A stretch of 64,000 nt of DNA, taken from positions 70,767-134,766 of the forward strand of contig JBMNNF010000003.1 of assembly GCA_050953825.1 (NCBI GenBank), given 5' to 3'. This DNA is from Acholeplasmataceae bacterium. Lineage in GTDB: Bacteria > Bacillota_I > Bacilli_A > Acholeplasmatales > Acholeplasmataceae. A program made the translations under genes and the position numbers. The notes below the pieces were generated by a model. That model was not told where the DNA came from. It ran no database searches and saw nothing but the letters and a program-made list of their open reading frames with translations. Positions 25,450-56,207 of the stretch are shown piece after piece (the stretch's first letter is position 1; each line of letters opens with the position of its first letter).

Positions 25450-25550
25450 GTCATATAAAGAAAAACAAATAAATTTTTTCTATTATAAGATAGAGATATG
25501 AGACGAAAACTTGACAATGTTATAACAAATGTATATACTTTTATTGAGGT

Positions 25551-32110: not shown

Positions 32111-34186
32111 ATGCCAAGAGAAACGAGCTTAGAAAAAACTAGAAATATTGGCATCATGGCGCATATTGACGCTGGTAAAACGACAACTAGCGAAAGAATT
32201 TTATATCATACTGGTAAAATTCATAAAATGGGCGAAACCCATGATGGAGCCGCTCAAATGGACTGGATGGAGCAAGAACAAGAACGAGGTATTACAATTA
32301 CCTCAGCCGCAACTACAGCATTTTGGAAAGGCTATAAAATTAATGTGATTGATACTCCAGGACACGTAGATTTCACAGTTGAAGTATCTCGTTCACTAAG
32401 AGTATTAGATGGTGCAGTTACGGTTTTGGATGCTCAAGCTGGTGTTGAGCCACAAACCGAAACTGTGTGGCGTCAAGCCACAGATTATAAAGTGCCAAGA
32501 ATTGTCTTTGTTAATAAGATGGATAAAATTGGCGCTGACTTCGAAAATGCAATTCAAACGATGCATAATCGTTTAGGGGTGAAAGCCTATGCGGTTCAAT
32601 GGCCAATTGGCGCAGAAAACGACTTCAGTGGAATTATTGACTTAATTACGATGAAAGCTTATCATTATGATGGCGGAATTGATGAGGAGACTACAGAAAT
32701 TCCTATTCCTGCTAATTTAATTAATAAGGTTAAGGAAAAAAGAATTGAATTAATTGAGGCCATCTGTGATTTTAACGAAGAATTAATGATTATGTATCTA
32801 GAGGGGGAAGAAATCCCAGTAGAAATAATCAAAGAAACGATTAGACAAGCAACTCTAGATGTTAAATTCTTCCCAGTATTTTGTGGGACCGCCTTTAAGA
32901 ATAAAGGAGTTAAAAAAATTCTTGATGGAATTATTGACTATTTACCAGCACCAACTGATGTTGATGGGATAGTCGGACATAAAGAAGATGGTACTCAAGT
33001 AGTGAGACTACCAAGTGATTCGGAACCATTTACTGCCCTAGCTTTTAAAGTAATGACTGACCCATACGTTGGTAAGTTAACTTTCTTCAGAGTTTATTCT
33101 GGATCAGTTAAATCAGGAAGTTATGTGAGAAACGCATCAAAAGATACAAGAGAACGCTTTGGTAGAATCTTATTAATGCACGCTAATCACCGTGAGGAAG
33201 TTAGCGAAGTCTACGCTGGTGATATTGCGGCAGTTGTTGGACTGAAAGAAACCACAACGGGGAATACTTTATGTGGTGAAAGAGATGATATCATTTTAGA
33301 ATCAATGATCTTCCCAGAACCAGTAATTGATATTGCAATTGAACCAAAAACCAAGCAAGACCAAGACCGGATGTCAACCGCTTTAACTAAACTAGCTGAA
33401 GAAGACCCAACATTTAGAACTTATATTGACAAGGAAACTGGACAAACGATTATTGCTGGTATGGGTGAATTACACTTAGACATTATTGTTGACCGTTTGA
33501 AAAGAGAATTTAAGGTTGAAGCTAATGTCGCTGAACCTCAAGTCTCTTATCGTGAAACAATTACTGTTCCAGCGACGATTGAAGGCAAGTTTGTCCGTCA
33601 ATCAGGTGGACGTGGTCAATATGGGCACGTTATTATCGAATTTGAGCCAAACCCAGGTAAAGGATTTGAATTCGTTGATAAAATTGTTGGTGGCGTTGTT
33701 CCAAAAGAATATATTCCAGCAGTTCAAAAAGGTTTAGAAGAAGCCATGCCTAATGGAATTGTCGCTGGTTATCCAGTATTAGACATTAAAGCTACTTTAA
33801 TTGATGGATCATATCATGATGTTGACTCATCAGAAATGGCCTTTAAAATTGCTGCATCAATGGCGTTAAAGGAATTATCTGAAAAAGGTAAACCAACTAT
33901 TTTAGAGCCAATTATGACAGTTGAAGTTGTTACACCGAATGATTATGTCGGTAACGTGATTGGCGATTTAACTAGTCGCCGTGGCCGATTAGAACACCAA
34001 GAGGGACGAGGTAATGCCGTCGCAATTAAAGCGTTCGTTCCACTTTCTGAAATGTTTGGCTATGCGACAGCCTTACGTTCTAACACTCAAGGAAGAGCTA
34101 ACTTCGTTATGCAATTCGCTCACTATGAGCCAACACCACGCTCAATTACTGATGATATTGTTAAAAAGCGCGGAGCAAAAGTATAA
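32111..34186 (+). CDS. fusA: Elongation factor G
   Basis: [21 protein letters not shown], full length 691 aa. Confidence 0.98.
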
Positions 34187-34313: not shown

Positions 34314-35498
34314 ATGGCAAAGAAAAAATTTGAAAGAACCAAACCACACGTAAATATTGGTACAATTGGTCACGTTGACCATGGTAAAACTACATTAACT
34401 GCAGCTATTACTTCGGTATTAGCTAAAAAAGGATTATCTGAAAAGAAAGACTATTCACAAATTGACGGTGCTCCAGAAGAAAAAGAAAGAGGAATCACTA
34501 TCAATACAGCTCACGTAGAATACGAAACTGAAAATCGTCACTACGCACACGTTGACTGCCCAGGACACGCTGACTATGTTAAAAACATGATTACTGGTGC
34601 GGCCCAAATGGACGGCGGAATTTTAGTTGTTTCAGCAGCAGATGGTATGATGCCTCAAACTAGAGAACACGTATTATTAGCTCGTCAAGTTGGAGTACCT
34701 AAGTTAGTTGTTTTCTTAAACAAATCTGACTTAGTTGATGACGATGAATTATTAGAACTTGTTGAAATGGAAATTAGAGAATTATTATCTGATTACGATT
34801 TCCCAGGTGATGATATTCCATTCGTAGCTGGTTCAGCACTAAAAGCTTTAGAAGGCGACCCTGTTCATGAACAAAAAATCATTGAATTAATGGCTAATGT
34901 TGACGCTTATGTTGATGAACCAATTAGAGAAACTGATAAACCTTTCTTAATGCCAGTTGAAGACGTATTTACCATTACTGGTCGTGGAACTGTGGCAACC
35001 GGCCGTGTTGAACGTGGAACTTTAAAGGTTGGAGACGAAGTTGAAATCGTTGGAATTAGACCAACTAGAAAAACAGTTGTTACTGGAGTTGAAATGTTTA
35101 GAAAATTATTAGACTACGCTGAAGCTGGAGACAACATCGGTGCTTTATTACGTGGTGTTCCACGTGATGAAATTGAACGTGGTCAAGTATTAGCTAAACC
35201 AGGATCAGTTAAACCACATACTAAGTTCGAAGCGCAAGTTTACGTTCTTTCTAAAGAAGAAGGTGGACGTCATACTCCATTCTTCTCAAATTATCGCCCA
35301 CAATTCTATTTCAGAACTACTGACGTTACAGGTGTTATTCACTTAAAACCAGGAACTGAAATGGTTATGCCTGGAGATAATACTGAAATGATCGTTGAAT
35401 TAATTCACCCAATCGCTGTTGAACAAGGTACTAAGTTCTCAATTCGTGAAGGCGGTAGAACAGTTGGTGCTGGTTCAGTAACTAAGATTATTGAATAA
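34314..35498 (+). CDS. tuf: Elongation factor Tu
   Basis: [18 protein letters not shown], 394 aa. Confidence 0.98.
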
Positions 35499-38065: not shown

Positions 38066-39448
38066 ATGGAGTTAAATTTATTGTTTAAAGTTGCGATAGT
38101 TTTAATTGTTGGCTTTATCGGAGGGCAAGTTGCTAGAAGATTAAAATTACCAAATGTTTCGGGGTATTTACTATTTGGATTATTATTGGGACCATCTTTA
38201 GGCTTAATTATTCCGGGATTTAGGGGATTAATCACGGCTGAAGATCAAAACACGTTACAATTCATTAGTGAAATTGCCCTAGCTTTTATCGCCTTTAGTA
38301 TTGGTAGTGAGTTTAATATTAAAAGCGTTAAAAAAATGGGGAAAGAAGTTAACGTTATCACATTAATGGAAGTAACTGGAGCAGTCATGTTAGTCTTCTT
38401 ATTTATGTTGGTGGTACCAAAGCCACAAACATTTAACAATACATACAATGTTATAGGGTATAATCCCTTTGCTAGGCCAAATGTTGCTTTCTCCATGATT
38501 CTTGCGAGTATGTCAGCTGCAACGGCACCAGCCGCAACATTAATGGTTGTTAGACAATATCGTGCATACGGACCGGTTACTAAGAAGATTTTACCAATTA
38601 CTGCAATGGATGATATCTACGGAATTGTTGTTTTTGGATTCTTTATTTCATTTGCTCAACTGTTAGTACCAGCAGGCGAACAATTACCATTATGGTTAAT
38701 GATTGCCAAACCATTTATTGAGGTATTCGGATCATTATTAATTGGAGCCATAATTGGATATCCATTATCAATTTTAGCTAGAAAGTTTGATCGAGAACGG
38801 GATGATATTCAAGTCTTGGCGATATCAGCGGTAGTACTATCACTTGGTTTTATTAGTGTTTTAAACCATGAAAAAGTATTAGGTCAATTTGGTATTAGTT
38901 TTTCAGCTCTATTATCTAATATTATTACTGGAGCGATGATTGCTAATCTAACTAGAAGACCAACTAGAACCTTTAATGCGGTTAATGATTTTACCGCTCC
39001 ATTCTTTGTTATGTTCTTTACTTTAGCAGGAGCCGGATTAGACTTGGCTATCATCAAGCAAGAATGGTTAATTGCAGTAATTAGTGTTGTCTATATTTTA
39101 GGTAGAGGTTTTGGTAAATATATTGGTACTTATTTAGGTGCGACAATGATGAAGAGCGAAGATAGTGTTAGAAAATATCTTGGTCTTGGACTCTTGCCAC
39201 AAGGTGGAGTCTCAATTGGACTTTTAGTTCTTGTTAAAAGAGCGTTCCCTGAAAATGATTTAGGAGAATTAAGTCCAATGTATAGTCTAATTTATACTAT
39301 AATTATGTTAAGTATTTTAGTTTATGAAACATCAGGCCCAATCTTTGCTAAGATTGCAATTTCTAAAGCCGGAGAAATTGGTGGTCTTGACAAACTTGAT
39401 CAGCTATCAAGTGTTGATGATTTAGTTTTAGAAGAAGAAGGAGTGTAA
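38066..39448 (+). CDS. Cation:proton antiporter (CPA2/Kef-type Na+/H+-exchanger family)
   Basis: About 12 TM segments. The N-terminal block GQVARRLKLPNVSGYLLFGLLLGPS is typical of the family. Lies downstream of the c-di-AMP riboswitch. Confidence 0.8.
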   Translation: MELNLLFKVAIVLIVGFIGGQVARRLKLPNVSGYLLFGLLLGPSLGLIIPGFRGLITAEDQNTLQFISEIALAFIAFSIGSEFNIKSVKKMGKEVNVITLMEVTGAVMLVFLFMLVVPKPQTFNNTYNVIGYNPFARPNVAFSMILASMSAATAPAATLMVVRQYRAYGPVTKKILPITAMDDIYGIVVFGFFISFAQLLVPAGEQLPLWLMIAKPFIEVFGSLLIGAIIGYPLSILARKFDRERDDIQVLAISAVVLSLGFISVLNHEKVLGQFGISFSALLSNIITGAMIANLTRRPTRTFNAVNDFTAPFFVMFFTLAGAGLDLAIIKQEWLIAVISVVYILGRGFGKYIGTYLGATMMKSEDSVRKYLGLGLLPQGGVSIGLLVLVKRAFPENDLGELSPMYSLIYTIIMLSILVYETSGPIFAKIAISKAGEIGGLDKLDQLSSVDDLVLEEEGV

Positions 39449-43285: not shown

Positions 43286-43320
43286 TTTAAACAAAGTAGA
43301 TTAAACTACATTATTAAAAG

Positions 43321-43347
43321 TGGAATCTTGCAAAGATTCCATTTTTT
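43321..43347 (+). terminator. rpsD terminator
   Basis: ggaatctt-gca-aagattcc followed by a T-run. Confidence 0.8.
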
Positions 43348-43433: not shown

Positions 43434-43462
43434 TTGACAAAAATTATAGTTATAACTATAAT
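43434..43462 (+). promoter_or_regulatory. Promoter of the giant lipoprotein gene
   Basis: TTGACA 43434-43439, 17-nt spacer, TATAAT 43457-43462. Confidence 0.6.
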
Positions 43463-43529
43463 ATAGTAGTAGTTTACACATTTAAATTACGTGTTTTAAA
43501 CTTAAATTTATCGAAAGGGTGAGTATTGG

Positions 43530-46500
43530 ATGATGGAAAAAAGTAAGTCGTTCCTTATCGGCAAATTGAGTAAAATATTCAGCATTGCTGTTCTTTTTTT
43601 TAGCGTTTTTTTACTCAATGGATGCGAAAATTTTAATGAAGAAGATCCCAAAAATCACGATGTTGTGATTAAGTATTTAGGCGAGGATCTAAATGGTAAC
43701 TATAGTGTTAATCTTGAAGAAGTAATAGTTAATAACAGGGAAGGTTATGAGATTTCGATTGAAGAAAAGACCTTCCCTAATTTTATTTTTAGAGAAGATA
43801 ACCCTAGAACATACATTATAACTGGTGAAGACAACCAAGAAGTAATCATTAAATATGACAAAGATGTGGGGTATACGATTAATTTTGATGGTAATGGTCA
43901 TACGAGTGGTGATACTGAAAGTCAAAGTGTGGAATACAATCAAGAGATAGCTTTGACCCCAAATGGGTTCAGTCGAACTGGTTACAGATTTATTGGCTGG
44001 AGTACCACCAGTGACGGAGTCGTTGAATATGCTGACCAAGTTAATGTTTTAAATTTGGCAACAGGTTCTATTACTTTATATGCGGTCTGGGAAGCGAACA
44101 CCTATACCATCATTTTTGATGGAAATGGAGCCACTAGTGGAATTACTGATAGTCAAACTGTAATTTATGACCAAACAGTAGCATTAAATGCTAATGGCTT
44201 TAATAAAACTGGTTATATGTTTATGGGGTGGGGTCTTTCTAGTGATGGAACAGTTCAATATAATGACGAAGCTACTGTTAATAATATCGTATCATCAGAA
44301 TCGATTACCTTGTATGCAATTTGGCAAGCGGCAACATGTATGATACAATTTGATGGAAATGGTCATACAGATGGTAATACCGAAAGTCAGATTTCAAATT
44401 ATAACGAAGAAACAAGACTAAATGCCAACGGATTTAGTAGAACTGGATATAAATTTATTGGTTGGAGTACAACAAGTACCGGAAGTGTTGAATATAACGA
44501 TCAAGAAGATGTTTTTGATTTAACAAAATCAAATTTGGTAACTCTGTATGCAGTGTGGGAAGCCAAAGCATACTCCATATTTTTTAGCGGAAATGGTCAT
44601 GACACTGGCATGATGGAACATCAAAATGTCTCATATGATCAAGAAGTTCCTCTTTCCGCCAACAAATTTGGTAAGATCGGCCATACATTTCAAGGGTGGA
44701 GCACTACCACTGATGGAATTGTTGAATATAATGATAAAGCTAATATTAAGAATCTAACAATATCACAATCTATAACCCTTTATGCAGTATGGAAAGCTAA
44801 TATTTATACAATTATCTTTGATGGAAACGGACATGATGGTGGAGATACTGGAAACCAAACAGTCCATTATAACCAAGTTGTAACATTAAATACCAATAGA
44901 TATACTAAGACTGGCTATACATTTATGGGATGGAGTCGTTCTAGTGATGGATATATTCAATATAATGATGAAGCTACTGTTAGTAATGTAACAGAATCGG
45001 ATTCAATCACTTTATATGCTAAATGGGTTGTAAATTCATATATAATTATTTTTGACGGAAATGGAGCTAATAGTGGTTATACAGAAAGTCAAGAAATAGA
45101 TTACAATGAACAAGCCAGATTAAATGAAAATGGATACGGTAGGACTGGTCATACATTTAAGGGATGGAGCACAACCAGTTCCGGAAGTGTTCAGTATACT
45201 GACAAAATAAGTGTTAAAAATTTAGTACCATCAGGAACAATTACTTTATATGCAATTTGGGAAGCTAAAACTTATACAATTATCTTTAACGGAAACGGAT
45301 GTGATGGTGGTTATACTGAAAATCAAACAATTAATTATGGCAAACAAGTAACACTAATTCCAAATGGATATACTAAGACTGGTTATACATTTGCAGGATG
45401 GAGTCGCTCTAGTGATGGAAATATTCAATATAATAACGAAGCTAGTGTTAAAAATGTTACAGAATCGGATTCAGTTACTTTATATGCTAAATGGGTTGCA
45501 AATTCATATGCGATTTTCTTTGATGGTAATGGAGCTAGTGTCGGCCATACAAAATATCAGATGATAAGATATGATGAACAAGTCGAATTAAACAAAAATG
45601 AATACGATAGGACCGGTTATACATTTAAGGGTTGGAGTACAACTATTAATGGAAACGTTGAATATAATGATAAAGCTAATATTAAGAATCTAGCACCATC
45701 AGGAACCATTACTTTATATGCAGTTTGGGAAGTTAACAGTTATACTATTAATTTCGATGGAAATGGTAGTACAAGTGGTAGTACTGCTAGTCAAACGATA
45801 AATTATGATAAGCAAGTGGCATTAAATGCCAATGAATTTATTAAAAATGGCTATACCTTTATTGGTTGGAGTACATTAAGTGATGGAGCAGTTCATTATA
45901 ATGACAAAGCTAGTGTTAAGAATCTAACAACTGAAGCTTCGATCACTTTATATGCGGTTTGGAAAGTTAACAATTACACCATTAATTTTGATGGAAATGG
46001 CAACGATGGTGGAATTACGCCAAGTCAAATTTTAGAATATGAACAAGAATTGCCGTTGAACGCTAATGAATTTATTAAAATTGGTTATACTTTTAAAGGT
46101 TGGAGTACAACCAGCACTGGAAATGTTGAATATGTTGATAAAGCGAATGTTAAGAAGTTAACTGTATCAACAATTACACTATATGCAATATGGCAAGTTA
46201 ATACATATACCATCACCTTTGATGGAAATGGCAATGATGATGGAACTACCGCAAGCCAAACTATCAATTACGATGAAATTGCAACCCTTAATGAAAATGG
46301 ATTTAGTAAGACTGGATATACCTTTAAAGGTTGGAGTAAAACTGAAATAGGTAATGTTGAATATGATGATAAATCCAGTGTTTTAAAACTATCAACTGGA
46401 AATCCAATTACTTTATATGCAATTTGGGAAGAAAATACTTACACCATCCACTTTGATGGGAATGGACATACTAGCGGCAATACCGAAAATCAAGTAATAT

Positions 46501-49500
46501 ATTATGAAGATTCCGTATTACTTAATCTAAATCAATATACTAAAATTGGATATACCTTTAAAGGTTGGAGCGAAACTGAGACTGGAAATGTTAAATATAA
46601 CGATTTAGCCAATGTTAACAAGTTAATTCCTTCAGGAACCATGACCTTGTTTGCAGTTTGGGAAGCCAACAAATATACGATTGACTTTAATGGTAATGGA
46701 TTCACAGGTGGAAGTACTCAAAGTCAAACCGTAAATTATGATGAAGAAGTAGCTTTGACTGCTAACGGTTATAATCGTGATAATCACAAATTTATTGGTT
46801 GGAGTAAAACCGAGACTGGAGATGTCCTTTATAATGACAAAGCCAGCATTAAAAATCTAGTAACATCAGGTTCAATTACTTTATATGCAGTTTGGGCCGT
46901 TGGGACTCATACTATTAATTTTAATGGAAACGGATATACAAGCGGAAGTACCGCTAGTCAAGTTGTGGAATACGGACAAATAGTAACACTTAATGAAAAC
47001 GGATTTAGTCGCGATAATCATGTATTTTTAGGTTGGAGCAAAACCGAAACTGGAGACGTCGAATATATTGATCAAGCGGAAGTTCAAAACTTAACAACCG
47101 GAAATTCAGTCACACTATATGCGGTGTGGGCAGTAAGCATTTATACAATTACCTTTAATGGAAACGGTCATGAGAGTGGTAGTACCATAAATCAAACCGT
47201 AAATTATAACGAAGAAGTATCACTCAATGCTAATGGTTATAGCAAGGATGGGTATCTATTTATTGGTTGGAGTACTACAAGTGATGGAAGCGTTCAATAT
47301 AGTGATCAAGCAAGTGTTAAGAATTTAACAACTATTGGCTCAATTACCTTATATGCAGTTTGGGCCGCTAACTCTTATGAAGTTAATTTTAATGGTAATG
47401 GTCATACTAGTGGCAGTATTGCTAATCAAACTGTAGATTATGACGAACAAGTAGCACTAAATGCCAACGGCTTTAGTAGAACTGGTTACACATTTGCTGG
47501 CTGGAGTACCATAAGTGATGGAAGCGTTCAATATAGTGATCAAGCAATTATTAAGAACTTAACAACCAAAGTTTCAATTACCTTATATGCAGTTTGGGAA
47601 GTTAATACTTATACCATTATTTTTGATGGTAATGAACATGATGGTGGAAATACTGAAAATCAAATAATAAATTACGATGAACAAGTAACATTGATACCAA
47701 ATGGATATACTAAGACCGGCTATACTTTTATGGGTTGGAGTCGCTCTAGTGATGGATATATTCAGTATAATGATGAAGCTATTGTTAAAAATGTAGCAGA
47801 ATCAGGATCAGTTACTTTATATGCAAAATGGGGGGTTAATATTTATACCATCATCTTTGATGGTAATGGCCATACTAGTGGTAGTACCGCTAGTCAGACC
47901 ACTAATTATGATGAAGGAACAACTTTAAATATTAACGGTTTTATTAGAACTGGTTATAGATTTATTGGTTGGAGTACAACAAGCACTGGAAATGCTGAAT
48001 ATAATGATCAAGAAACTGTTCTCCGTTTGACCACATCAAATGCTATTACTTTATATGCAGTCTGGGAAGCCCAAGGTTACACAATATATTTTAATGGAAA
48101 TGGTTCAGATGCTGGAAATATGCAGTATCAAAATGTTATATATGATCAAGAAGTTGCACTTAAGCCAAATGAATTTGGTAGAACCGGCTACAATTTTAAA
48201 GGCTGGAGTACCACAAGTAATGGAAGTGTTGAATACACTGATCAAAAGAAGATTAAAAACTTAACAACATTACAATCCATAACCCTTTATGCAGTTTGGG
48301 AAGCAAACACCTACACAGTAAACTTTGATGGTAATGGTCATACTAGTGGCAGTACCGCAAGTCAAACAATCAACTATGATGAACAGGTCGCACTAAATGC
48401 CAACGGCTATAGTAAGACTGGCTATACTTTCATTGGTTGGAGCACAACGATTTATGGAAACGTTGAATACATTGACAAAGCAAGTATTAAGAACTTAACA
48501 ACCAGTGGATCAATTACTTTATATGCGATATGGACAACTAAATCTTATACAGTAAACTTTAATGGTAATGGTTATACTAGTGGCAGTACTGCAAGTCAAA
48601 CAATCAACTATGACGAACAAGTCGCACTAAATGCCAACGGCTTTAGTAAAACTGGATACACATTTATCGGTTGGAGCATTACAAGTGATGGAAGTGTTCA
48701 ATATAATGACCAAGCGAGTGTTAAAAATCTAACAACCGAAACCTCAATTACTTTATATGCGGTATGGACAACTAAATCTTATACAGTAAACTTTGATGGT
48801 AATGGTCATACTGATGGAAGTACCGCTAGTCAAACAATTAACTATGATGAACAAGTAGCATTAAATGCCAACGGCTTTAATAAAACTGGATACACATTTA
48901 TCGGTTGGAGCATTACGAGTGATGGAAGTGTTCAATATAGTGATCAAGCTAGTGTTAAAAATCTAACAACCCAAACTTCAATTACTTTATATGCAGTTTG
49001 GGAAGCTAATACTTATACCATCATCTTTGATGGTAATGGTCATACTAGTGGCAGTACCGCTAGTCAAACAATTAACTATGACGAACAAGTAGCATTAAAT
49101 ACCAATGGCTTTATCAGAACTGGTTACACATTTGTTGGTTGGAATACAGCTAGCACTGGAACCGCTGAATATACTGATGGAGCTAGTGTTAAGAATTTAA
49201 CAACCGAAACCTCAATTACTTTATATGCGGTATGGACAACTAAATCTTATACAGTAAACTTTGATGGTAATGGTCATACTAGTGGCAGTACCGCAAGTCA
49301 AACAATCAACTACGATGAACTAGTATCATTAATTCCAAATGGATATACTAAGACTGGCTATACTTTTATGGGATGGAGTCGCTCTAGTGATGGAAGTGTT
49401 CAATATAGTGATCAAGCTAGTGTTAAAAATCTAACGACCGAAACCTCAATTACTTTATATGCAGTTTGGGAAGCTAACTCTTATACAGTAAACTTTGATG

Positions 49501-52500
49501 GTAATGGTCATACTAGCGGCAATACCGTAAGTCAAACAATTAACTATGATGAACAAGTCGCACTAAATGCCAACGGCTTTAATAAAACTGGATACACATT
49601 TATCGGTTGGAGCATTACAAGTGATGGAAGTGTTCAATATAGTGATCAAGCTAGTGTCAAGAACTTAACAACCCAAACTTCAATTACTTTATATGCAGTC
49701 TGGGAAGCTAACTCTTATACAGTAAACTTTGATGGTAATGGTCATACTAGTGGTAATACTTTAAGTCAAACGATAGATTATGACGAACAAGTCGCATTAA
49801 ATACTAACGGCTTTATCAGAACTGGTTACACATTTGTTGGTTGGAATACAGCTAGTACTGGAACCGCTGAATATACTGATGGAGCTAGTGTTAAGAATTT
49901 AACAACCGAAACCTCGATTACTTTATACGCAATCTGGGAAGGAAATACTTATACTATTAACTTTAATAGAAATGGAAGTGACGCTGGAAGTATGGCCAGT
50001 CAAACTGCTAAGTATGGTCAACAAGTATCACTTAATCCAAACGGATTTTCAAAGACTGGTTATACATTCATTGGCTGGAGTACAACAAGTACGGGAAATG
50101 TTAAATATACCGACAAGGCAAATACTAATAACTTAACTACTGAAAGTTCAATCACTTTATATGCTATCTGGAAAGCTAACACTTATATCATTACCTTTGA
50201 TGGTAATGGTCACACCGGTGGAAATACTACCAGTCAAACTGTAACTTATGATGAAGAAATAACCTTAACTGCTAACGGATTTTCAAAGACTGGTTATAAA
50301 TTCGTTGGTTGGAGTACAACAAGTACGGGAAATGTTAAATATGTCGATCAGGCAAGTGTTAGTAATATAACTATTGAAAGTTCAATTACCTTGTATGCAG
50401 TCTGGGAAAAAACTCATCAAAAAATTACATTCAATTTAAACGAAGGGACATTACCAAGTGGTTATAGTACAATAATTTATGTTTCAAATCAACTTTTCCC
50501 ATATGTGTTACCAACACCAACAAAAATTCAAAGTGGTGAAGCCTCATATGAATTTTTAGGTTGGTATGAAACTAACTCAACTGAAGGAACGAAAGTAGAT
50601 GTTTTATCAGAGCTTAAAGATTATACTTTATATGCACAGTGGAATACTGATGTGGTCTACTATAAAGGTGAATATCCGCAATCAAGGGTCACTAACTCAT
50701 CATTACTAACTGAATTAAATAAATTAACACCTCAAACTTCAAGTAAAATATTAACTACATCACAAGGTACAGCACATACAGAAGTATGGTATACCATTAA
50801 TTATGGTGGCTATAAGTTTGAAAAAGTTGGCGACAAATATTATAAATATGAACCAATCGCCTTTTATAAATTAGCCGATGGTACATATTATTCAAAACAT
50901 GTAATCGATTATTCGCCATTTGATGAAAAGGTTGATAACGAGACTGTAACTAATAATTATCATAATAGTTACGTGAGAAAGTATTTAAATGAAGTAATTA
51001 AAACTAAGGCAGGAATTAACTCAACATTAGGCTTATTGTCAAAAGCCCAATTATCTAATACCACTAATTTTGCTGATGATAATGCAAGAGCTGCTCAGAC
51101 TACAAGTTACGGTTTCGGAGTAGTAGAAGGTGGTAGAGGAAAAATAACATCATTTTCTGTCAACTATTTCTATTTTTATAATAAACACTATTGGACTAAT
51201 ACTCCTAGTACATATTCTAAATATGTCGTCAATCGTGTTAATGGAGATGGTATTTTCTTAGATGCCGATTGTAACCACGCTTTCGGTTTGCGCATCACCA
51301 TTCCAAAAACCTATACTATTGAATTTAGAGGAAATGGTAGCGATAGCGGTAGTACTGAAACCCAAATAGTCGAATATGGAATGCCAACACCACTGAATAT
51401 GAATGGATTTGCAAGAGAATGTTACGCATTTGTTGGTTGGAGTACTACTTATAACGGGGATGTTGAATATGAAGATGGAGCCATAATTACCGATCTAACA
51501 ACCGAAAATATTACTTACTTATATGCGAAATGGGAAAGAATCGCCGTTAAGATTACCTTTAATTTAAATGGCGGTACTTTACCTGAAGGCTATGATACCG
51601 TAATGATGATTTATAATACTGAATTTCCATATACCTTACCAATTCCTGAAAAAGCTCAAAATGGCGAAGAATCATATGAGTTTTTAGGTTGGTCATACTC
51701 TAGTAGTCCAACGGGCAATAAAATTTATGTCTTAGAAACTCCTTCAACCTCTACCTTATACGCACATTGGGGTAGTGTTTACTATAAAGGTGAGTATCCA
51801 CAAACTAAAGTTATGGATGAAACATTAATCATTGAATTAAATAAATTAACACCTCAAACATCAAGTAAAACATTAACGACATCACAAGGCAAGTCACATA
51901 CAGAAACTTGGTACACAGTTACATATAATGGTATTAAATATGAAAAAGTCGGTACCGATTATTATAAATATGAACCAATTAAGTTTTATAGGTTATCAGA
52001 TGGAACTTATTATTCTGGCTTCATAATTGATTACTCTCCATTTGATGAATATACAACTAGTGTTGTAACTAATATTTACAACAATAGTTATATTAAAAAA
52101 TATTTAAACGAAGTAATCAAAGCTAAAACAGGATTTACCTCATTAATCGGAATCTTATCAAATGAAGAGTTATCCAATACCACCAATTTCGCCAATGGTG
52201 CCGCAAGAAGAACTACAAGTACTGAATACGCAACGGCAATTTATCAAGGTGCTAGAGGCAAAATTACATTTGGTTCTTATTCTTCTAGTTATTTAGATAA
52301 TTATTGGACAAGTACTCCAAGTGCAGACAATGGCAATCTTGCGTATGTGGTTAATAAATACGGAACTCAATCCGCTTCTAATAATAGAACTAGTCGTGTT
52401 CTCGGCTTACGGATGACAATACCAGGAACTTACACCATCAATTTTGATGGAAATGGAAGTGATGGTGGTAATACCGCCAGTCAAATTGCACCATATGATC

Positions 52501-55500
52501 AAGAGGTACAATTAAATGCCAACGGCTTTACAAGAACTGACTATACATTTATTGGTTGGAGTACTACTAGCACTGGAGATTGTATCTATGATGATCAAGC
52601 ACTAGTTACCAATTTAACAACCCTTGAGACAGTAACTTTATATGCAAAATGGATTAGAAATCCAAAAACCATTACTTTCCATTTAAATGATGGTAGTTTA
52701 CCTGAAGGTTATGAGACAACAATGTTACTTTATGAAGCTAATCTTCCATATACTTTACCAATACCAACTAAAGCTCCAAATGGCGAAGCCCACTATGAAT
52801 TTATTGGTTGGTATCCATCAAATACAATTATATTTGACAATAAAATTGAGGTCTTAAATGAGTTTGAAGACTATACATTATACGCTAAATGGGATGAAGT
52901 CTACTATATTGGCGAATATCCACAAACTAAAGTAATTGATTCAGCCTTAATTATTGAATTAGATAAACTAACACCTCAAACATCAAGTAAAACATTAACG
53001 ACATCGCGAGGTAAGTCACATACAGAAACTTGGTACACAGTTACATACAGTGGTATTAAATATGAAAAAGTCGATACTGATTATTATAAATATGAACCAA
53101 TTGCATTTTGTAAAACAGCAGATGGAACTTATTATTCTAGACACATATTAGACTATTCACCATTTGATGAACTAGGTAATGATAGTACTATAACCAATAT
53201 CTACAACAATAGTTATGTTAGAAAGTACATAACAGAAGTTGTTAAACCTAAAACAGGTCTTGATTTTCTATTAGGTTTATTTTCAAAAGAACAGCTAAAT
53301 AATAGCGATGATTTCCCTTGGAATGCTCATCGAAAAGCTGTTAATACAGATTACTCAAATATGGCATGTCAAGGTGGAAGAGGAAAGATTCCGTCATCAT
53401 CATTTTTGGTCTCTTACAACATAAATTATCTAAATACATATTGGACAAACAGCCCTTCAACAGCTTTATACCGAACACTCAATGTTAAAGATAATGGTTC
53501 TGTAGTTCCAAATTCTCAAGGTGCTTCTACACATGAAGTGTTAGGGCTTCGCATAACAATTCCAACCGGTTATACTATAACTTTTAATGGTAACGGTTAT
53601 ACAAGTGGTAGTACGCCAAAACAGATCGTAAAATATAATGAATCAGAACAAGTTCAATTAAATGCTAATGGATTTTTAAAGACAGGCTATACTTTTAAAG
53701 GTTGGAGTACAACCGCTACTGGAGAAGTTGAATATAATGACGAAATGGTTATTGAAAGTCCTCTAGCAGATGAATTAATCACTTTATATGCCGTTTGGGA
53801 GGCAAACACTTATACCATTATCTTCAACGGTAATGGACATGACGGTGGTATCACACCAAATCAAAATATGACATACGACCAGGCATTGGCGTTACATCAA
53901 AGTAATTTTTATAAAGAAAATTACAAGTTTATTGGTTGGAGTACAACCGCCACTGGCAATGTTATTTATGAAAATAAGGAAATAGTTATTAATTTAACCA
54001 CTTCCGGTTCAATTACTTTATATGCGGTTTGGTTATTAGGTAAGCAAATCACTCTTAACTTAAACGGTGGCACCCTACCTAGTGGTTATAAGAGTGTGAT
54101 GTTTATAGCTAACTCAGACTTCCCATATACCCTACCAATTCCGACGAAAACTGATGGGGAGGGCGGAGTATATGAATTTTTCGGTTGGTATGATAACCAC
54201 TATATGCATTATGGAAATAAATTAGATGAGTTAACTGAAATTAAAGATTATACTTTATATGCCCATTGGACTGAGTATCCTGTTTATTACCAAAATGAAT
54301 ATCCTCAAACTAAAGTCACTGATCAAGCATTAATCACCGAATTAAATAAACTCACACCTGAAACATCAAGTAAGACGTTAACTACTTCACAAAATACATC
54401 TAACGTTGAAACTTGGAATACAGTTACATATAGCGGTAATAAATATGAAAAATTGGGTAGCGATTATTATAAATATGAACCAATTGCCTTCTATAAATTA
54501 CCAGATGGAACTTATTATTCAAGATATATCATCGATTATTCACCATTTGATGAATACGGAAGTCCAACTATCCAAACTAACAAATACGACGATAGTTATG
54601 TTAGAAAATATTTAAAAGAAGTCATGAGGACTAAATCGGGAATTGATCAAACATTAGGCTTATTGTCAACTGATGAATTATCAACTTATAATAAAATTAA
54701 CAAAGCCACTAGTACTGATTATGCAAGTGCAGTCTTATTAGGTGGTAGAGGTGAAATAACATCATTTGAAGTTTCTTACGATGATTCTTATTTAAATTAT
54801 TACTATACAAATACTTCGTATACATATGGCACTCAAAGTGCATATTGTATCAATGCTGATGGTAATAAAACTAACTATATTTGTTATCGAGTACTAGGTC
54901 TTCGCGTGTCGATTCCAAGAACCTATATCATAACCTTTGAGGGAAACGGTCATGATAGTGGAAGTACTCAAAGTCAAACAGTCTATTACCATGAACGAGT
55001 ACCACTAAATGCTAATGGATTTAGTAAATCTGGTCACACCTTTATGGGATGGAGTACAACTAGTACAGGAGATGTTGAATATATTGATGAAGAAAATATT
55101 AAAAACTTAACCAATGAGGTTGGTGGCGAAGTAACCTTATATGCCGTTTGGGAAGAACATCATACCGTTAACGTTATTTTAAATGGTGGAGCTTTACCTG
55201 GTGGCGGTAATGTTATCAACGTTCCAATTTCAGAGTTTCCATTTATTATGCCAAGACCAACTAAGACTACTGGAAGTTATCATCGAGAATTTTTAGGTTG
55301 GTATACTGAAAACTCTACTGAAGGGACAAGATTAGACGTATTAAGTACACTTCAAACCTATACTTTATACGCTTTATGGGGTGATGAACCACTTTATTAT
55401 ATCGGCGAGTATCCACAAACTAAAATTACTGATGCAGCGTTAATTGCTATACTTGATGAATTGACACCACAAACATCAACTAAGACTTTACCAACATCAC

Positions 55501-56096
55501 AACCTGATCTATCTAACACAGAAACTTGGTATACGGTTAGTTATAAAGGTTATAAGTTTGAAAAACTTGGATCTAATTATTTTAAATATGAACCAATCGC
55601 TTTCTACTATCGAATCGATACCGGTCTTCATTACACTAAGTACATAATCGACTATTCACCATTTGATGTCTATGTATTTCCTGCAAGTGGGTATATCCCA
55701 TCTAATAATTATAATACTAGCTATGTTAAAGGTTATCTAAACCAAGTCCTTAAAATCAAAGCCGGTGTTACTTCAACTGTAAGGTTGTTATTAGAAACAG
55801 ATTTAAATAACACTGCTAATTTTGCTGATGTTGAAGCGAAAAAAGCGACATCTACCGAATATGCGGAAGAAGTATTTTTAACACATATCCGACACGAAAA
55901 TTCAACGCTAGGCGTCAGTTATAAAACTTCTTCATATTTGAATACTTATTGGACGGGTACTCCTAGTAAGAAAACAGATCAATCCCATATTAATCGAGTG
56001 GTTTATGTTTTATATAATGGTAATTATGGCGAACACTACTACTTAATAGAACACGCTAACTATTTATTTGGATTGCGTTGTGTGTTTGAAGATTAA
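43530..56096 (+). CDS. Giant (4188 aa) surface lipoprotein made of Listeria-Bacteroides-type (Flg_new-like) repeats plus five larger C-terminal modules
   Basis: Uninterrupted 12.5-kb ORF. Signal peptide with lipobox LLNGC. The repeat signature F(D/N)GNG...GY.F.GW...TLYA.W recurs throughout. Confidence 0.9.
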   Translation: MMEKSKSFLIGKLSKIFSIAVLFFSVFLLNGCENFNEEDPKNHDVVIKYLGEDLNGNYSVNLEEVIVNNREGYEISIEEKTFPNFIFREDNPRTYIITGEDNQEVIIKYDKDVGYTINFDGNGHTSGDTESQSVEYNQEIALTPNGFSRTGYRFIGWSTTSDGVVEYADQVNVLNLATGSITLYAVWEANTYTIIFDGNGATSGITDSQTVIYDQTVALNANGFNKTGYMFMGWGLSSDGTVQYNDEATVNNIVSSESITLYAIWQAATCMIQFDGNGHTDGNTESQISNYNEETRLNANGFSRTGYKFIGWSTTSTGSVEYNDQEDVFDLTKSNLVTLYAVWEAKAYSIFFSGNGHDTGMMEHQNVSYDQEVPLSANKFGKIGHTFQGWSTTTDGIVEYNDKANIKNLTISQSITLYAVWKANIYTIIFDGNGHDGGDTGNQTVHYNQVVTLNTNRYTKTGYTFMGWSRSSDGYIQYNDEATVSNVTESDSITLYAKWVVNSYIIIFDGNGANSGYTESQEIDYNEQARLNENGYGRTGHTFKGWSTTSSGSVQYTDKISVKNLVPSGTITLYAIWEAKTYTIIFNGNGCDGGYTENQTINYGKQVTLIPNGYTKTGYTFAGWSRSSDGNIQYNNEASVKNVTESDSVTLYAKWVANSYAIFFDGNGASVGHTKYQMIRYDEQVELNKNEYDRTGYTFKGWSTTINGNVEYNDKANIKNLAPSGTITLYAVWEVNSYTINFDGNGSTSGSTASQTINYDKQVALNANEFIKNGYTFIGWSTLSDGAVHYNDKASVKNLTTEASITLYAVWKVNNYTINFDGNGNDGGITPSQILEYEQELPLNANEFIKIGYTFKGWSTTSTGNVEYVDKANVKKLTVSTITLYAIWQVNTYTITFDGNGNDDGTTASQTINYDEIATLNENGFSKTGYTFKGWSKTEIGNVEYDDKSSVLKLSTGNPITLYAIWEENTYTIHFDGNGHTSGNTENQVIYYEDSVLLNLNQYTKIGYTFKGWSETETGNVKYNDLANVNKLIPSGTMTLFAVWEANKYTIDFNGNGFTGGSTQSQTVNYDEEVALTANGYNRDNHKFIGWSKTETGDVLYNDKASIKNLVTSGSITLYAVWAVGTHTINFNGNGYTSGSTASQVVEYGQIVTLNENGFSRDNHVFLGWSKTETGDVEYIDQAEVQNLTTGNSVTLYAVWAVSIYTITFNGNGHESGSTINQTVNYNEEVSLNANGYSKDGYLFIGWSTTSDGSVQYSDQASVKNLTTIGSITLYAVWAANSYEVNFNGNGHTSGSIANQTVDYDEQVALNANGFSRTGYTFAGWSTISDGSVQYSDQAIIKNLTTKVSITLYAVWEVNTYTIIFDGNEHDGGNTENQIINYDEQVTLIPNGYTKTGYTFMGWSRSSDGYIQYNDEAIVKNVAESGSVTLYAKWGVNIYTIIFDGNGHTSGSTASQTTNYDEGTTLNINGFIRTGYRFIGWSTTSTGNAEYNDQETVLRLTTSNAITLYAVWEAQGYTIYFNGNGSDAGNMQYQNVIYDQEVALKPNEFGRTGYNFKGWSTTSNGSVEYTDQKKIKNLTTLQSITLYAVWEANTYTVNFDGNGHTSGSTASQTINYDEQVALNANGYSKTGYTFIGWSTTIYGNVEYIDKASIKNLTTSGSITLYAIWTTKSYTVNFNGNGYTSGSTASQTINYDEQVALNANGFSKTGYTFIGWSITSDGSVQYNDQASVKNLTTETSITLYAVWTTKSYTVNFDGNGHTDGSTASQTINYDEQVALNANGFNKTGYTFIGWSITSDGSVQYSDQASVKNLTTQTSITLYAVWEANTYTIIFDGNGHTSGSTASQTINYDEQVALNTNGFIRTGYTFVGWNTASTGTAEYTDGASVKNLTTETSITLYAVWTTKSYTVNFDGNGHTSGSTASQTINYDELVSLIPNGYTKTGYTFMGWSRSSDGSVQYSDQASVKNLTTETSITLYAVWEANSYTVNFDGNGHTSGNTVSQTINYDEQVALNANGFNKTGYTFIGWSITSDGSVQYSDQASVKNLTTQTSITLYAVWEANSYTVNFDGNGHTSGNTLSQTIDYDEQVALNTNGFIRTGYTFVGWNTASTGTAEYTDGASVKNLTTETSITLYAIWEGNTYTINFNRNGSDAGSMASQTAKYGQQVSLNPNGFSKTGYTFIGWSTTSTGNVKYTDKANTNNLTTESSITLYAIWKANTYIITFDGNGHTGGNTTSQTVTYDEEITLTANGFSKTGYKFVGWSTTSTGNVKYVDQASVSNITIESSITLYAVWEKTHQKITFNLNEGTLPSGYSTIIYVSNQLFPYVLPTPTKIQSGEASYEFLGWYETNSTEGTKVDVLSELKDYTLYAQWNTDVVYYKGEYPQSRVTNSSLLTELNKLTPQTSSKILTTSQGTAHTEVWYTINYGGYKFEKVGDKYYKYEPIAFYKLADGTYYSKHVIDYSPFDEKVDNETVTNNYHNSYVRKYLNEVIKTKAGINSTLGLLSKAQLSNTTNFADDNARAAQTTSYGFGVVEGGRGKITSFSVNYFYFYNKHYWTNTPSTYSKYVVNRVNGDGIFLDADCNHAFGLRITIPKTYTIEFRGNGSDSGSTETQIVEYGMPTPLNMNGFARECYAFVGWSTTYNGDVEYEDGAIITDLTTENITYLYAKWERIAVKITFNLNGGTLPEGYDTVMMIYNTEFPYTLPIPEKAQNGEESYEFLGWSYSSSPTGNKIYVLETPSTSTLYAHWGSVYYKGEYPQTKVMDETLIIELNKLTPQTSSKTLTTSQGKSHTETWYTVTYNGIKYEKVGTDYYKYEPIKFYRLSDGTYYSGFIIDYSPFDEYTTSVVTNIYNNSYIKKYLNEVIKAKTGFTSLIGILSNEELSNTTNFANGAARRTTSTEYATAIYQGARGKITFGSYSSSYLDNYWTSTPSADNGNLAYVVNKYGTQSASNNRTSRVLGLRMTIPGTYTINFDGNGSDGGNTASQIAPYDQEVQLNANGFTRTDYTFIGWSTTSTGDCIYDDQALVTNLTTLETVTLYAKWIRNPKTITFHLNDGSLPEGYETTMLLYEANLPYTLPIPTKAPNGEAHYEFIGWYPSNTIIFDNKIEVLNEFEDYTLYAKWDEVYYIGEYPQTKVIDSALIIELDKLTPQTSSKTLTTSRGKSHTETWYTVTYSGIKYEKVDTDYYKYEPIAFCKTADGTYYSRHILDYSPFDELGNDSTITNIYNNSYVRKYITEVVKPKTGLDFLLGLFSKEQLNNSDDFPWNAHRKAVNTDYSNMACQGGRGKIPSSSFLVSYNINYLNTYWTNSPSTALYRTLNVKDNGSVVPNSQGASTHEVLGLRITIPTGYTITFNGNGYTSGSTPKQIVKYNESEQVQLNANGFLKTGYTFKGWSTTATGEVEYNDEMVIESPLADELITLYAVWEANTYTIIFNGNGHDGGITPNQNMTYDQALALHQSNFYKENYKFIGWSTTATGNVIYENKEIVINLTTSGSITLYAVWLLGKQITLNLNGGTLPSGYKSVMFIANSDFPYTLPIPTKTDGEGGVYEFFGWYDNHYMHYGNKLDELTEIKDYTLYAHWTEYPVYYQNEYPQTKVTDQALITELNKLTPETSSKTLTTSQNTSNVETWNTVTYSGNKYEKLGSDYYKYEPIAFYKLPDGTYYSRYIIDYSPFDEYGSPTIQTNKYDDSYVRKYLKEVMRTKSGIDQTLGLLSTDELSTYNKINKATSTDYASAVLLGGRGEITSFEVSYDDSYLNYYYTNTSYTYGTQSAYCINADGNKTNYICYRVLGLRVSIPRTYIITFEGNGHDSGSTQSQTVYYHERVPLNANGFSKSGHTFMGWSTTSTGDVEYIDEENIKNLTNEVGGEVTLYAVWEEHHTVNVILNGGALPGGGNVINVPISEFPFIMPRPTKTTGSYHREFLGWYTENSTEGTRLDVLSTLQTYTLYALWGDEPLYYIGEYPQTKITDAALIAILDELTPQTSTKTLPTSQPDLSNTETWYTVSYKGYKFEKLGSNYFKYEPIAFYYRIDTGLHYTKYIIDYSPFDVYVFPASGYIPSNNYNTSYVKGYLNQVLKIKAGVTSTVRLLLETDLNNTANFADVEAKKATSTEYAEEVFLTHIRHENSTLGVSYKTSSYLNTYWTGTPSKKTDQSHINRVVYVLYNGNYGEHYYLIEHANYLFGLRCVFED
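43866..50410 (+). repeat. 28 consecutive in-frame coding repeats of about 75-78 aa (about 234 nt)
   Basis: I counted 28 units ending in (I/V/M)TL(Y/F)A.W before the first large module. Confidence 0.85.
50410..56093 (+). repeat. Five copies of a composite unit: degenerate repeat, ~270-aa module, then 1-2 canonical repeats (none after the final module)
   Basis: Recurring blocks: ITFNLNGGTLPEGY, YEF(L/I)GWY, (E/N)YPQ(T/S)(K/R)(V/I), LNKLTPQTSSKTLTTSQG, YKYEPI, IDYSPFDE, YWT(N/S/G)(T/S)PS, GLR. Confidence 0.8.
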
Positions 56097-56170: not shown

Positions 56171-56207
56171 AACCAAATAAGGAGCGCACAACGCTCCTTT
56201 TTTGGTT
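56171..56207. terminator. Strong bidirectional terminator after the giant gene
   Basis: aaccaaa-t-aaggagcg cacaa cgctcctt-t-tttggtt, about 15 bp. Confidence 0.85.

Follow-up and report, generated by a model that had tools for sequence, protein, structure and literature searches.

A giant Flg_new/DUF6273-like putative lipoprotein of an Acholeplasmataceae bacterium as a probable multivalent fibrillar adhesin

Introduction

A 64-kb stretch of DNA from an Acholeplasmataceae bacterium, hereafter the window, carries a single open reading frame for a protein of 4188 residues, most of it repeats and the rest five large modules. What is such a protein built from, are its gene and repeat number genuine, and what might the five modules do? 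An earlier note, made from the DNA letters, had proposed a lipoprotein with Listeria-Bacteroides-type repeats and modules of unclear function. Here we show that the modules are relatives of DUF6273, a widespread lectin-like domain that forms the N-terminal domain (NTD) of a gut IgA protease and is a favourite target of diversity-generating retroelements (DGRs), and that the locus offers a clean natural example of the use of this domain outside phages.

Gene and transcription unit

The ORF (43530..56096, stop codon included; this and all features below lie on the + strand) starts with ATG and is the sole long ORF in that interval. It is a real, intact gene for a giant Flg_new/DUF6273-like putative lipoprotein of 4188 aa. 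A promoter-like TTGACA-17 nt-TATAAT at 43434..43462 agrees with the consensus at 12 of 12 positions, a consensus match only, and lies downstream of a terminator-like hairpin (43316-43346) that follows rpsD. The Shine-Dalgarno-like stretch GAAAGGGTGAG was read from the sequence at 43514..43524, with the ATG 5 nt further on. A GC-rich terminator-like hairpin followed by a T-run occupies 56179..56199, 83 nt past the stop codon, where shuffled sequences gave an expectation of 0.0. The gene would thus be monocistronic and is probably highly expressed, its product presumably residing on the cell surface. Gene order is not shared with the Acholeplasmatales relatives: none of FtsH, rpsD and ThiI stands beside the homologues in L005-L008.

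N-terminus and proposed repeat stalk

The protein begins with a predicted signal peptide (aa 1-32, 43530..43625) comprising a K-rich n-region, the hydrophobic core FSIAVLFFSVFLL and a lipobox-like LLNG-C32. The n-region, core and cysteine of the signal peptide and lipobox in the earlier note are present; the box itself is atypical, reading L-N-G-C, with G-C32 in place and Asn at position -2. Asparagine at this position falls outside the usual lipobox consensus (PROSITE/G+LPP patterns, [LVI][ASTVI][GAS]C). Canonical boxes (LVGC, LVAC and IAAC) occur in three further predicted lipoproteins of the window, and relatives L005/L006 carry LVGC at the lipobox. Lipid modification of Cys32 would anchor the N-terminus in the membrane. 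The following pre-repeat domain (aa 33-109, 43626..43856) is weakly MucBP-like (Pfam MucBP E=0.002, 19.1 bits, cut-off 23) and is 38-44% identical to the segment of L005-L007 upstream of their first recognisable Flg_new-type repeat.

A regular-expression search found 38 repeat ends of the form L[YF]AxW, of which 33 are preceded by an F[DNSRE][GR]N[GE] start motif and were called canonical; the remaining five, which are without the start motif, were called variant. The first 28 canonical repeats run uninterrupted over aa 110-2292 (43857..50405), each of 78 aa except one of 77. These counts agree with the earlier note (33 canonical and five degenerate repeats, the first 28 uninterrupted at ~78 aa), and its assignment to the Flg_new/List_Bact_rpt family was borne out by Pfam Flg_new (PF09479), which scored 1164.1 bits against a 27-bit cut-off (E=0) in 36 stretches, the best spanning profile positions 1-65 of 65. 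The canonical repeats make up a tight subtype of 78 aa, its signature being FDGNG..SG.T.SQ. At the DNA level, Tandem Repeats Finder reported a period of 234 nt over 44066-50408, with 27.1 copies, 70% matches and a score of 2920; individual repeat pairs share 55-91% nucleotide identity. One further candidate, DUF5999 (29.7 bits for the whole protein), had zero qualifying stretches and was rejected as an artefact of repeat summing.

Flg_new has been proposed to be a stalk domain of fibrillar adhesins, and in some proteins Flg_new stalks bear catalytic domains (10.1101/2021.12.07.471604). In the genomes of relatives, Flg_new is found joined to Peptidase_S41 and to SBP_bac_5, as would suit a general surface-display spacer. 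The MucBP-like domain and the 28 tandem Flg_new domains, which are of the InlB B-repeat type, would together form a long stalk, presumably in an extended form.

Five-unit C-terminal array

The C-terminal 1,900 aa form the five-unit higher-order array described in the earlier note, and we verified the order of its parts: each unit consists of a variant repeat and a module, followed by 1, 1, 2, 1 and 0 canonical repeats in units 1 to 5. Unit 1 comprises a variant repeat (aa 2293-2371, 50406..50642; assigned by hhalign, TIGR02543 E=6e-4), module 1 (aa 2372-2592, 50643..51305; alignment, sub-threshold Pfam and hhalign) and canonical repeat 29 (aa 2593-2668, 51306..51533). In unit 2, the variant repeat (aa 2669-2747, 51534..51770; hhalign) was modelled jointly with module 2 (aa 2748-2965, 51771..52424; the copy modelled with AlphaFold2 and compared with BFVD by Foldseek), after which comes canonical repeat 30 (aa 2966-3041, 52425..52652). 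The variant repeats of the remaining units were assigned by hhalign and their modules by alignment and hhalign. Unit 3 has its variant repeat at aa 3042-3121 (52653..52892), module 3 at aa 3122-3345 (52893..53564) and canonical repeats 31-32 at aa 3346-3501 (53565..54032). Unit 4 is made up of its variant repeat (aa 3502-3580, 54033..54269), module 4 (aa 3581-3796, 54270..54917) and canonical repeat 33 (aa 3797-3874, 54918..55151). Lastly, unit 5 joins a variant repeat (aa 3875-3950, 55152..55379) to module 5 (aa 3951-4188, 55380..56093), which forms the C-terminus of the protein.

The variant repeats are related to the canonical ones (hhalign, 92.9%). In a model of one unit, variant repeat plus module 2, the repeat part had pLDDT values of 55-87, and Foldseek against the PDB placed 2y5p_D seventh (prob 0.77, target TM 0.55, E 0.44), a weak and non-significant match; 9QA6 was also among the weak, non-significant matches.

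Homology and fold of the modules

The modules measure 216-238 aa, shorter than the ~270 aa given in the earlier note, whose own example, 50640-51310, amounts to 223 aa. All the conserved blocks that it listed (YPQTKV, LNKLTPQTSSKTLTTSQG, YKYEPIAF, IDYSPFDE, NSYVRKYLNEV, YWTNTPS and GLR) appear in the five-module alignment. The resemblance to DUF6273 that it suggested proved to be true homology: hhalign aligned the five modules with 12 Pfam-verified DUF6273 regions over 185 columns at 99.8% probability (E 4.3e-29), and an HMMER profile search retrieved Pfam-positive DUF6273 proteins at E 1e-7 to 1e-14. Judged by these profile comparisons, the modules share ancestry with Pfam DUF6273 but have diverged from it. 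The Pfam model itself (PF19789) gave module 1 only 16 bits (E 0.011) against a 23.5-bit threshold, found no match in modules 2-5 and was not listed for the whole protein; it overlooks a divergent subfamily in Acholeplasmatales, and its first position falls ~60-75 residues within the actual structural domain. NCBIfam returned nothing for the modules, a tblastn search of 50,697 phage records with the single sequence of module 2 returned no match, and a word-index protein search recovered two fragments only, the family becoming visible by exhaustive HMMER search. Weak Pfam matches to Endopep_inhib, TRIC and GBP were set aside as noise, far below their cut-offs and inconsistent between modules.

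An AlphaFold2 model of module 2 was confident (pLDDT 96.2, pTM 0.92). Its top Foldseek matches in BFVD, which holds predicted structures, were DUF6273 phage proteins (prob 1.00, E 1e-4 to 2e-3), with a query TM of 0.37-0.48 and a target TM of up to 0.60; these modest TM-scores indicate a fold related to that of DUF6273 but decorated. Foldseek of the module model against the PDB gave nothing significant (best E 0.37), and sequence searches of the PDB with a 5-module and a 29-sequence profile gave no match even at E≤10, leaving 9QA6 undetected. The assignment of a lectin-like fold to the modules therefore rests on published analyses of other DUF6273 members, which have a C-type-lectin-like core (PMC12415215, PMC12237041). 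Across the wider family only Y-P-Q is invariant, with S, W and R nearly so, and the wider-family alignment has no conserved Cys, His or acidic constellation; each module contains 0-2 cysteines, which are not conserved.

Variation among the modules

The five modules are 47-59% identical in amino acid sequence, a level at which synonymous sites are saturated. Divergence is unevenly placed: pairwise identity is 59% in alignment columns 1-140, 39% in columns 141-196 and 18% from YWTNTPS to GLR. DGR variable regions likewise map to the C-terminus of DUF6273 (PMC11792537; 10.1101/2024.10.15.618418). The variable segment of the modules thus corresponds to the one hypermutated by DGRs in phage and bacterial DUF6273 receptor-binding proteins, which makes it a likely ligand-contact surface; it may also vary simply as it is made of loops. 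Five paralogous copies on one stalk that differ mainly at the DGR-varied site point to the same likely ligand-binding surface.

Proposed function of the giant putative lipoprotein

We consider the protein most likely to be a lipid-anchored, fibrillar and multivalent adhesin with five putative binding heads, a reading that we favour without regarding it as secure. The distal 1,900 residues would bear the heads, each a diverged DUF6273 domain of ~220 aa built around a C-type-lectin-like core; a variant Flg_new domain comes before every head, and one or two canonical repeats lie between successive heads. Built on a conserved scaffold, the heads diverge markedly in the loops near their C-terminus, from YWTNTPS to GLR, and probably bind ligands that differ in kind or in presentation, which could be glycans or surface proteins of particles, cells or a host. 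The major adhesin of the earlier note fits this domain composition, from which we infer it. Several observations speak against this reading: repeat number is equal in two alleles, whereas 'periscope' stalk proteins typically vary in length; the lipobox has its atypical Asn; the modules score below the Pfam threshold; and the module model has no significant match among solved structures. The protein would be a prime candidate for attachment in uncultured Acholeplasmataceae.

A more far-reaching version, which we put forward tentatively, is that the five heads are a hard-wired germline repertoire of lectin-like receptors on one stalk and that the Acholeplasmatales-specific hairpin insertion (TPQTSSKTLTTSQG) sets apart a new subfamily of DUF6273 that has a ligand class of its own. 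If so, a small-genome, wall-less bacterium would gain multi-specific adhesion, to more than one glycan or partner simultaneously, without a retroelement, and the paralogous heads would have diverged in those same C-terminal loops that are hypermutated by DGRs in related proteins. The protein is most likely a large but fairly ordinary repeat adhesin of a known class, with similar alternating architectures in other Bacillota. The novelty implied by the earlier note was overstated, since alternating Flg_new/DUF6273 proteins are already public and this very protein is deposited as MGI6781448.1, an 'InlB B-repeat-containing protein' identical to the product of the window.

The nearest rival to an adhesin is a passive coat or spacer, an abundant layer shielding a wall-less cell, in which the modules would be structural or self-association nodes. 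The host is a wall-less member of the Acholeplasmataceae (Mollicutes). Very large size together with a perfect promoter consensus suggests high expression, the host has no cell wall and Flg_new serves as a generic spacer on other surface proteins of relatives, all of which would suit a coat. We nevertheless judge it unlikely, as Pfam and NCBIfam revealed no known self-assembly or S-layer domain, and five diverged lectin-like copies, most variable where DGRs diversify receptor-binding relatives, fit recognition better. A ligand is known for no DUF6273 domain (PMC12415215; PMC12237041), a further point for a coat. The earlier note had left the modules' function unknown, and their match to a characterised domain goes halfway: the fold class is published, while published work still describes the function of DUF6273 as unknown and shows that IgAse can cleave IgA without its NTD (PMC12415215; PMC12237041).

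A 'fibrillar enzyme', with stalk-displayed modules of, for example, FGE-sulfatase-like or glycan-modifying activity, is improbable. Flg_new stalks do bear catalytic domains elsewhere, as in the Peptidase_S41 fusions of relatives, and some C-type-lectin-fold families are catalytic, FGE-sulfatase among them; the modules, however, matched no enzyme family in Pfam, NCBIfam or the PDB sequence search and are without the conserved Cys, His or acidic constellation noted above. Moreover, the related IgAse NTD adds nothing to catalysis (PMC12237041).

Hypermutation of one or more modules at the C-terminal segment by a retroelement elsewhere in the genome is slightly less probable still, even though DUF6273 is a recurrent DGR target with a C-terminal variable region and the most variable module segment lies in the matching place. 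The 64-kb window contains neither an ORF >250 aa with a Y[AVIMLC]DD reverse-transcriptase motif nor, outside the modules themselves, a template-like copy of the 180 nt at the 3' end of any module. The 18 amino acid differences between alleles are scattered, with four in modules and one in the C-terminal segment, and identical sequence was recovered from several samples.

Alleles and gene integrity

An identical 4188-aa protein is found in NCBI (MGI6781448.1) and on two JGI metagenome contigs, where the neighbouring genes are also the same. NCBI members P0003 and P0152 are also 4188 aa long and differ from the window protein at 18 and 17 residues, respectively. The allele of P0003, in GCA_046128275.1 (L032), shows 58 nucleotide differences and no indels over 12,564 nt, with a pN/pS of 0.13. 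The same length in independent assemblies, together with this indel-free allele and its low pN/pS, shows that the gene is no assembly artefact and is under purifying selection, and the collapse of repeats that the earlier note had raised as a hazard is unlikely given that the closest pair is only 91% identical. Although mis-assembly is common for highly repetitive genes in metagenome-assembled genomes (MAGs), and the window itself shows further suspicious duplications, namely a perfect 6,038-bp repeat and second copies of EF-Tu and EF-G that are truncated, these data leave almost no room for a repeat number or frame produced by mis-assembly, or for a decaying pseudogene.

Comparison with known systems

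The proposed stalk belongs to the Flg_new/List_Bact_rpt class (PF09479, TIGR02543), whose prototype is the InlB B-repeat (PDB 2Y5P), and its 33 canonical repeats align with the Pfam model over the model's full length. The copy number of 38 is unusually high, and the N-terminal anchor would be of the lipoprotein type, in place of an LPXTG, GW or dockerin anchor.

The modules are homologous over the whole domain to DUF6273, as represented by the T. ramosa IgA protease N-terminal domain (cryo-EM 9QA6) and by phage receptor-binding proteins that DGRs target ('tentaclins', Mtd-like targets). Common blocks are GEYPQ.KV, Y.KVEPI, S.(I/V)R.(Y/W)LN, TDYA, YWT..P and G.R. The DUF6273 signatures W-[LT]-R-[ST]-P and G-[IV]-R-P are replaced by YW-T-[NSG]-[TS]-P/S and G-L-R-[ITMVC], so that W-x-R-S-P typically becomes W-T-N-T-P and G-[IV]-R-P becomes G-L-R-[IMV]; W and the final R persist, but the Arg of the motif and the last Pro do not. 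Relative to typical members, the modules have a ~13-residue insertion (within TPQTSSKTLTTSQG.SHTE) predicted to form an extra hairpin and are missing a ~28-residue 'VDNS...NP..C..T.D..FLLS' segment. DUF6273 is a recurrent DGR target; no DGR was found in the window here.

The closest solved structure to the IgAse DUF6273 domain is reported to be the C-terminal domain of Lcl (PMC12237041). This domain (PF07603, formerly DUF1566; PDB 8Q4E) is the glycosaminoglycan-binding, lectin-like head of the Legionella collagen-like adhesin, which has the same layout of such a head on a repetitive stalk. The domain shows no significant sequence or Foldseek match to the modules, PF07603 giving sub-threshold Pfam matches to module 2 (E 0.34) and to relative P0011 (E 0.008). 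Lcl heads form trimers on their collagen stalk, whereas the heads here would be monomeric beads in one chain.

With fibrillar adhesins and 'periscope' proteins (SasG, Rib, SraP) the protein shares the layout of anchor, repetitive stalk and adhesive domain. Periscope proteins vary in repeat number via near-identical DNA repeats, and no such variation was seen between the two allele groups here. Fibrillar adhesins have one terminal head, whereas the heads here are internal and fivefold. Close relatives in Acholeplasmatales MAGs carry one C-terminal module (L005-L007) or two (P0004). At least two DUF6273-type domains occur in 50 of the best 150 matches, one of which has six, and P0007 alternates six DUF6273 domains with eight Flg_new domains and adds a dockerin.

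Domain architecture of the 4188-residue protein

ORF 43530-56096 on the + strand encodes 4188 residues. The product begins with MMEKSKSFLIGKLSKIFSIAVLFFSVFLLNGC, comprising a lysine-rich n-region, a hydrophobic core and Cys32 in the lipobox position. By motif count, the protein contains 38 repeat ends of the form L[YF]AxW, 33 of which have a canonical FDGNG-type start. Canonical Flg_new repeats 1-28 are uninterrupted with a period of 78 residues (77 in one case); Tandem Repeats Finder assigned the DNA of the array a period of 234 nt, 27.1 copies and a score of 2920, and the Pfam Flg_new model (PF09479) matched the protein with 1164 bits over 36 stretches. The C-terminal 1,900 residues form five units, each a variant repeat and a module (residues 2372-2592, 2748-2965, 3122-3345, 3581-3796 and 3951-4188) followed by 1, 1, 2, 1 and 0 canonical repeats, respectively. 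The ORF, repeat counts and five-unit layout described in an earlier note are thereby confirmed, and every sequence block quoted there for the modules was found in the five-module alignment; the module length of ~270 residues is corrected to 216-238.

Pairwise nucleotide identity between repeats is 55-91%, the closest being repeats 21-23 and 24-26, a duplicated three-repeat block (85-91%), and the repeats are old. A Pfam match to DUF5999 at residues 779-794 (29.7 bits against a whole-protein cut-off of 27.5, with zero qualifying stretches) was rejected as a false positive, arising from weak matches summed across many repeats.

The modules as diverged DUF6273 domains

Direct NCBIfam and Pfam scans of the five modules returned almost no matches: module 1 alone matched DUF6273, with 16 bits against a cut-off of 23.5, and module 2 matched Lcl_C at E 0.34. 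Of 1.84 billion representative proteins searched with an HMMER profile, only 207 reached E≤1e-3 and just 6 reached E≤1e-30, the 4188-residue protein itself among these six. When 20 more distant matches were scanned, 12 passed the Pfam DUF6273 threshold (P0013 and P0020 from the first ten, and all ten of a second batch). Profile-profile comparison of the modules with these 12 verified regions gave 99.8% probability and E 4.3e-29 over the whole domain, and a multiple alignment revealed the common blocks GEYPQ.KV, Y.K(V/Y)EPI, S.(I/V)R.(Y/W)LN, TDYA, YWT..P and G.R. Relative to typical DUF6273 domains, the modules have an insertion of ~13 residues within TPQTSSKTLTTSQG.SHTE and are missing a segment of ~28 residues, 'VDNS...FLLS'; in W-x-R-S-P the Arg is lost, and in G-x-R-P the Pro. 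Together, these features argue that the modules are a diverged, homologous subfamily of DUF6273 lying beyond the current Pfam model. The Flg_new/List_Bact_rpt and DUF6273 families named in the earlier note are therefore correct, and we place high confidence in both domain assignments.

In alignment A3, an alignment of the modules with relatives (P0048, P0109, P0073 and others), conservation of the structural domain begins ~60-75 residues ahead of the first of the 172 positions in the Pfam DUF6273 model. Every relative has the N-terminal hairpins 'GEYPQ.KV ... Y.KVEPI.W', in which Y-P-Q is invariant, and the model does not cover them.

An AlphaFold2 model of module 2, built with a 29-sequence alignment, is a single compact α/β domain (mean pLDDT 96.2, pTM 0.92). 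Foldseek found nothing significant for it among solved structures (best E 0.37); in BFVD, a database of predicted viral protein structures, its top matches were 'DUF6273 domain-containing' phage proteins (prob 1.00, E 1e-4 to 2e-3, TM 0.37-0.60). A model of the variant repeat with its module (pLDDT 86.5, pTM 0.77) places one unbroken strand from the repeat end into the module; the relative orientation of the two is not robust, since the remaining four models score lower. Its weak, non-significant matches in the PDB include the InlB B-repeat 2Y5P and 9QA6, the T. ramosa IgA peptidase (IgAse), whose N-terminal domain is a DUF6273 domain.

Putative expression signals and lipid anchor

The gene lies among housekeeping genes encoding FtsH, ribosomal protein S4, ThiI, a SpoU methylase and a deformylase, with no mobile-element or retroelement genes among the scanned neighbours. 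A terminator-like hairpin (43316-43346) follows rpsD, a promoter-like TTGACA-17-TATAAT with perfect consensus (43434-43462) lies upstream of the ORF, an SD-like GAAAGGGTGAG just 5' of its ATG, and a GC-rich hairpin with a T-run at 56179-56199. Together, these consensus matches suggest a monocistronic, strongly expressed unit.

Acholeplasmataceae belong to the Mollicutes and have no cell wall, so a surface protein is expected to be retained by a lipid anchor at its N-terminus. The residue at lipobox position -2 is Asn, which is atypical of the PROSITE and G+LPP patterns. Canonical lipoboxes are present in the window's other lipoproteins and in the homologues from L005 and L006. Lipidation of Cys32 is likely.

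A putative fibrillar adhesin

We favour, with moderate confidence, a lipid-anchored fibrillar adhesin. Anchored through Cys32, the protein would continue into a small MucBP-like domain, a weak Pfam match (E 0.002, below threshold) that is conserved upstream of Flg_new-type repeats in relatives. The 28 Flg_new domains would form a stalk, by rough estimate of the order of 100 nm if extended; Flg_new is listed as a stalk domain in a survey of fibrillar adhesins (10.1101/2021.12.07.471604). The distal part would bear five lectin-like heads, with one to three Flg_new domains between neighbouring heads. By cryo-EM, the IgAse N-terminal domain has a C-type-lectin-like core with decorating extra segments, and among solved structures it most closely resembles the glycosaminoglycan-binding C-terminal domain of Legionella Lcl (PMC12237041); another group terms DUF6273 function unknown (PMC12415215). 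As the heads have a scaffold in common and vary in their C-terminal loops, the probable contact surface, binding would be multivalent and perhaps directed at several ligands. As to the ligand, a relative described below (P0007) has a dockerin, and the window contains sugar-uptake genes; both are hints, still speculative, of glycans or polysaccharide particles.

That the protein is instead a passive coat or spacer we judge unlikely. That the modules are enzymes displayed on the stalk is considerably less probable; in IgAse, the DUF6273 domain is not required for IgA cleavage (PMC12237041).

Divergence among the modules

The modules are 47-59% identical to each other (identity to the first sequence, module alignments A1 and A3). 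Mean pairwise identity falls from 59% over alignment columns 1-140 to 39% over columns 141-196, and to 18% in the stretch that separates YWTNTPS from the terminal GLR, which also contains indels. This last segment is equivalent to the variable region of DUF6273 proteins targeted by diversity-generating retroelements (DGRs), but the 64-kb window contains neither an ORF of >250 residues with the reverse-transcriptase motif Y[AVIMLC]DD nor a template-like copy of the 3' end of any module, and allelic substitutions are spread along the protein, with just one in the C-terminal segment of a module. We therefore consider a DGR target among the modules highly improbable, and the pattern points to divergence between old paralogous copies rather than ongoing hypermutation. 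Tentatively, and with more doubt than confidence, we speculate that the five heads are a hard-wired five-receptor repertoire, mirroring what DGRs reach by mutation.

Integrity of the gene and other features of the window

The protein is already in the public record under a generic annotation: it is identical to MGI6781448.1 ('MAG: InlB B-repeat-containing protein [Acholeplasmataceae bacterium]', on a 187-kb contig), and identical genes occur on two JGI metagenome contigs that share the FtsH, rpsD and ThiI neighbours. Two more assemblies contain an allele of exactly equal length with 17-18 substitutions; in GCA_046128275.1, 58 of 12,564 nucleotide positions differ, with zero indels and a Nei-Gojobori pN/pS of 0.13. 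Given these records and the diverged repeats, we reject assembly collapse and pseudogenisation, and the chance that the gene is an assembly artefact is almost negligible.

Elsewhere in the window, a stretch of 6,038 bp is directly repeated with 100% identity (1-6038 and 12573-18610, spacing 12,572 bp). It carries two ABC permeases, a solute-binding lipoprotein and the N-terminal portion of a GFO/IDH/MocA oxidoreductase, and it ends within ORFs 4963-6225 and 17535-19268, of which the second is a fusion with a PfkB kinase domain. Either the segment was duplicated very recently or the repeat is an artefact of assembly. EF-Tu and EF-G each recur as a second copy truncated at the N-terminus (EF-Tu at 24409-25401, 100% amino acid identity to residues 64-394; EF-G at 25548-27440, 96% to residues 60-690). 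These copies lie in reversed order relative to the full fusA-tuf pair (32111-34183 and 34314-35495) and are either a rearrangement relic or a mis-assembly. A c-di-AMP riboswitch (RF00379, 37898-38021, + strand, 89 bits, E 2e-19) lies directly 5' of a Na+/H+ exchanger-family ORF (38066-39448). ORF 7878-10964 (+, 1028 residues) joins a lipoprotein-type N-terminus (...VFIAAC) to a family 4 glycosyl hydrolase C-terminal domain (residues 776-1001), an unusual combination, as such enzymes are normally cytoplasmic.

Comparison with related proteins

Among genomic relatives, the closest (46-49% identity) are lipoproteins 1461, 1480 and 2923 residues long from Acholeplasmatales and Bacilli MAGs. Each has one module, located at the C-terminus behind the same type of variant repeat, whereas the window protein has five modules. 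A 660-residue fragment contains two adjacent modules, and two library relatives, P0001 and P0002, are fragments ending at contig ends. On the metagenome contigs of P0002 (L001-L003, about 5.8-11.3 kb), Flg_new repeats also occur in fusions with Peptidase_S41 (924 residues) and with a solute-binding protein of the SBP_bac_5 family (940 residues), which suggests that Flg_new serves these organisms as a spacer for surface display in general.

In the wider family, 50 of the best 150 matches have at least two domains, and one has six. P0007, a 2293-residue library protein, combines six DUF6273 and eight Flg_new domains with a C-terminal type I dockerin, so the alternating layout is not unique to the window protein. 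The 4188-residue protein is thus a new, very large Flg_new stalk protein of an already known class, its DUF6273-type heads belonging to a diverged subfamily missed by Pfam, and P0007 is a cellulosome-linked counterpart of its alternating architecture.
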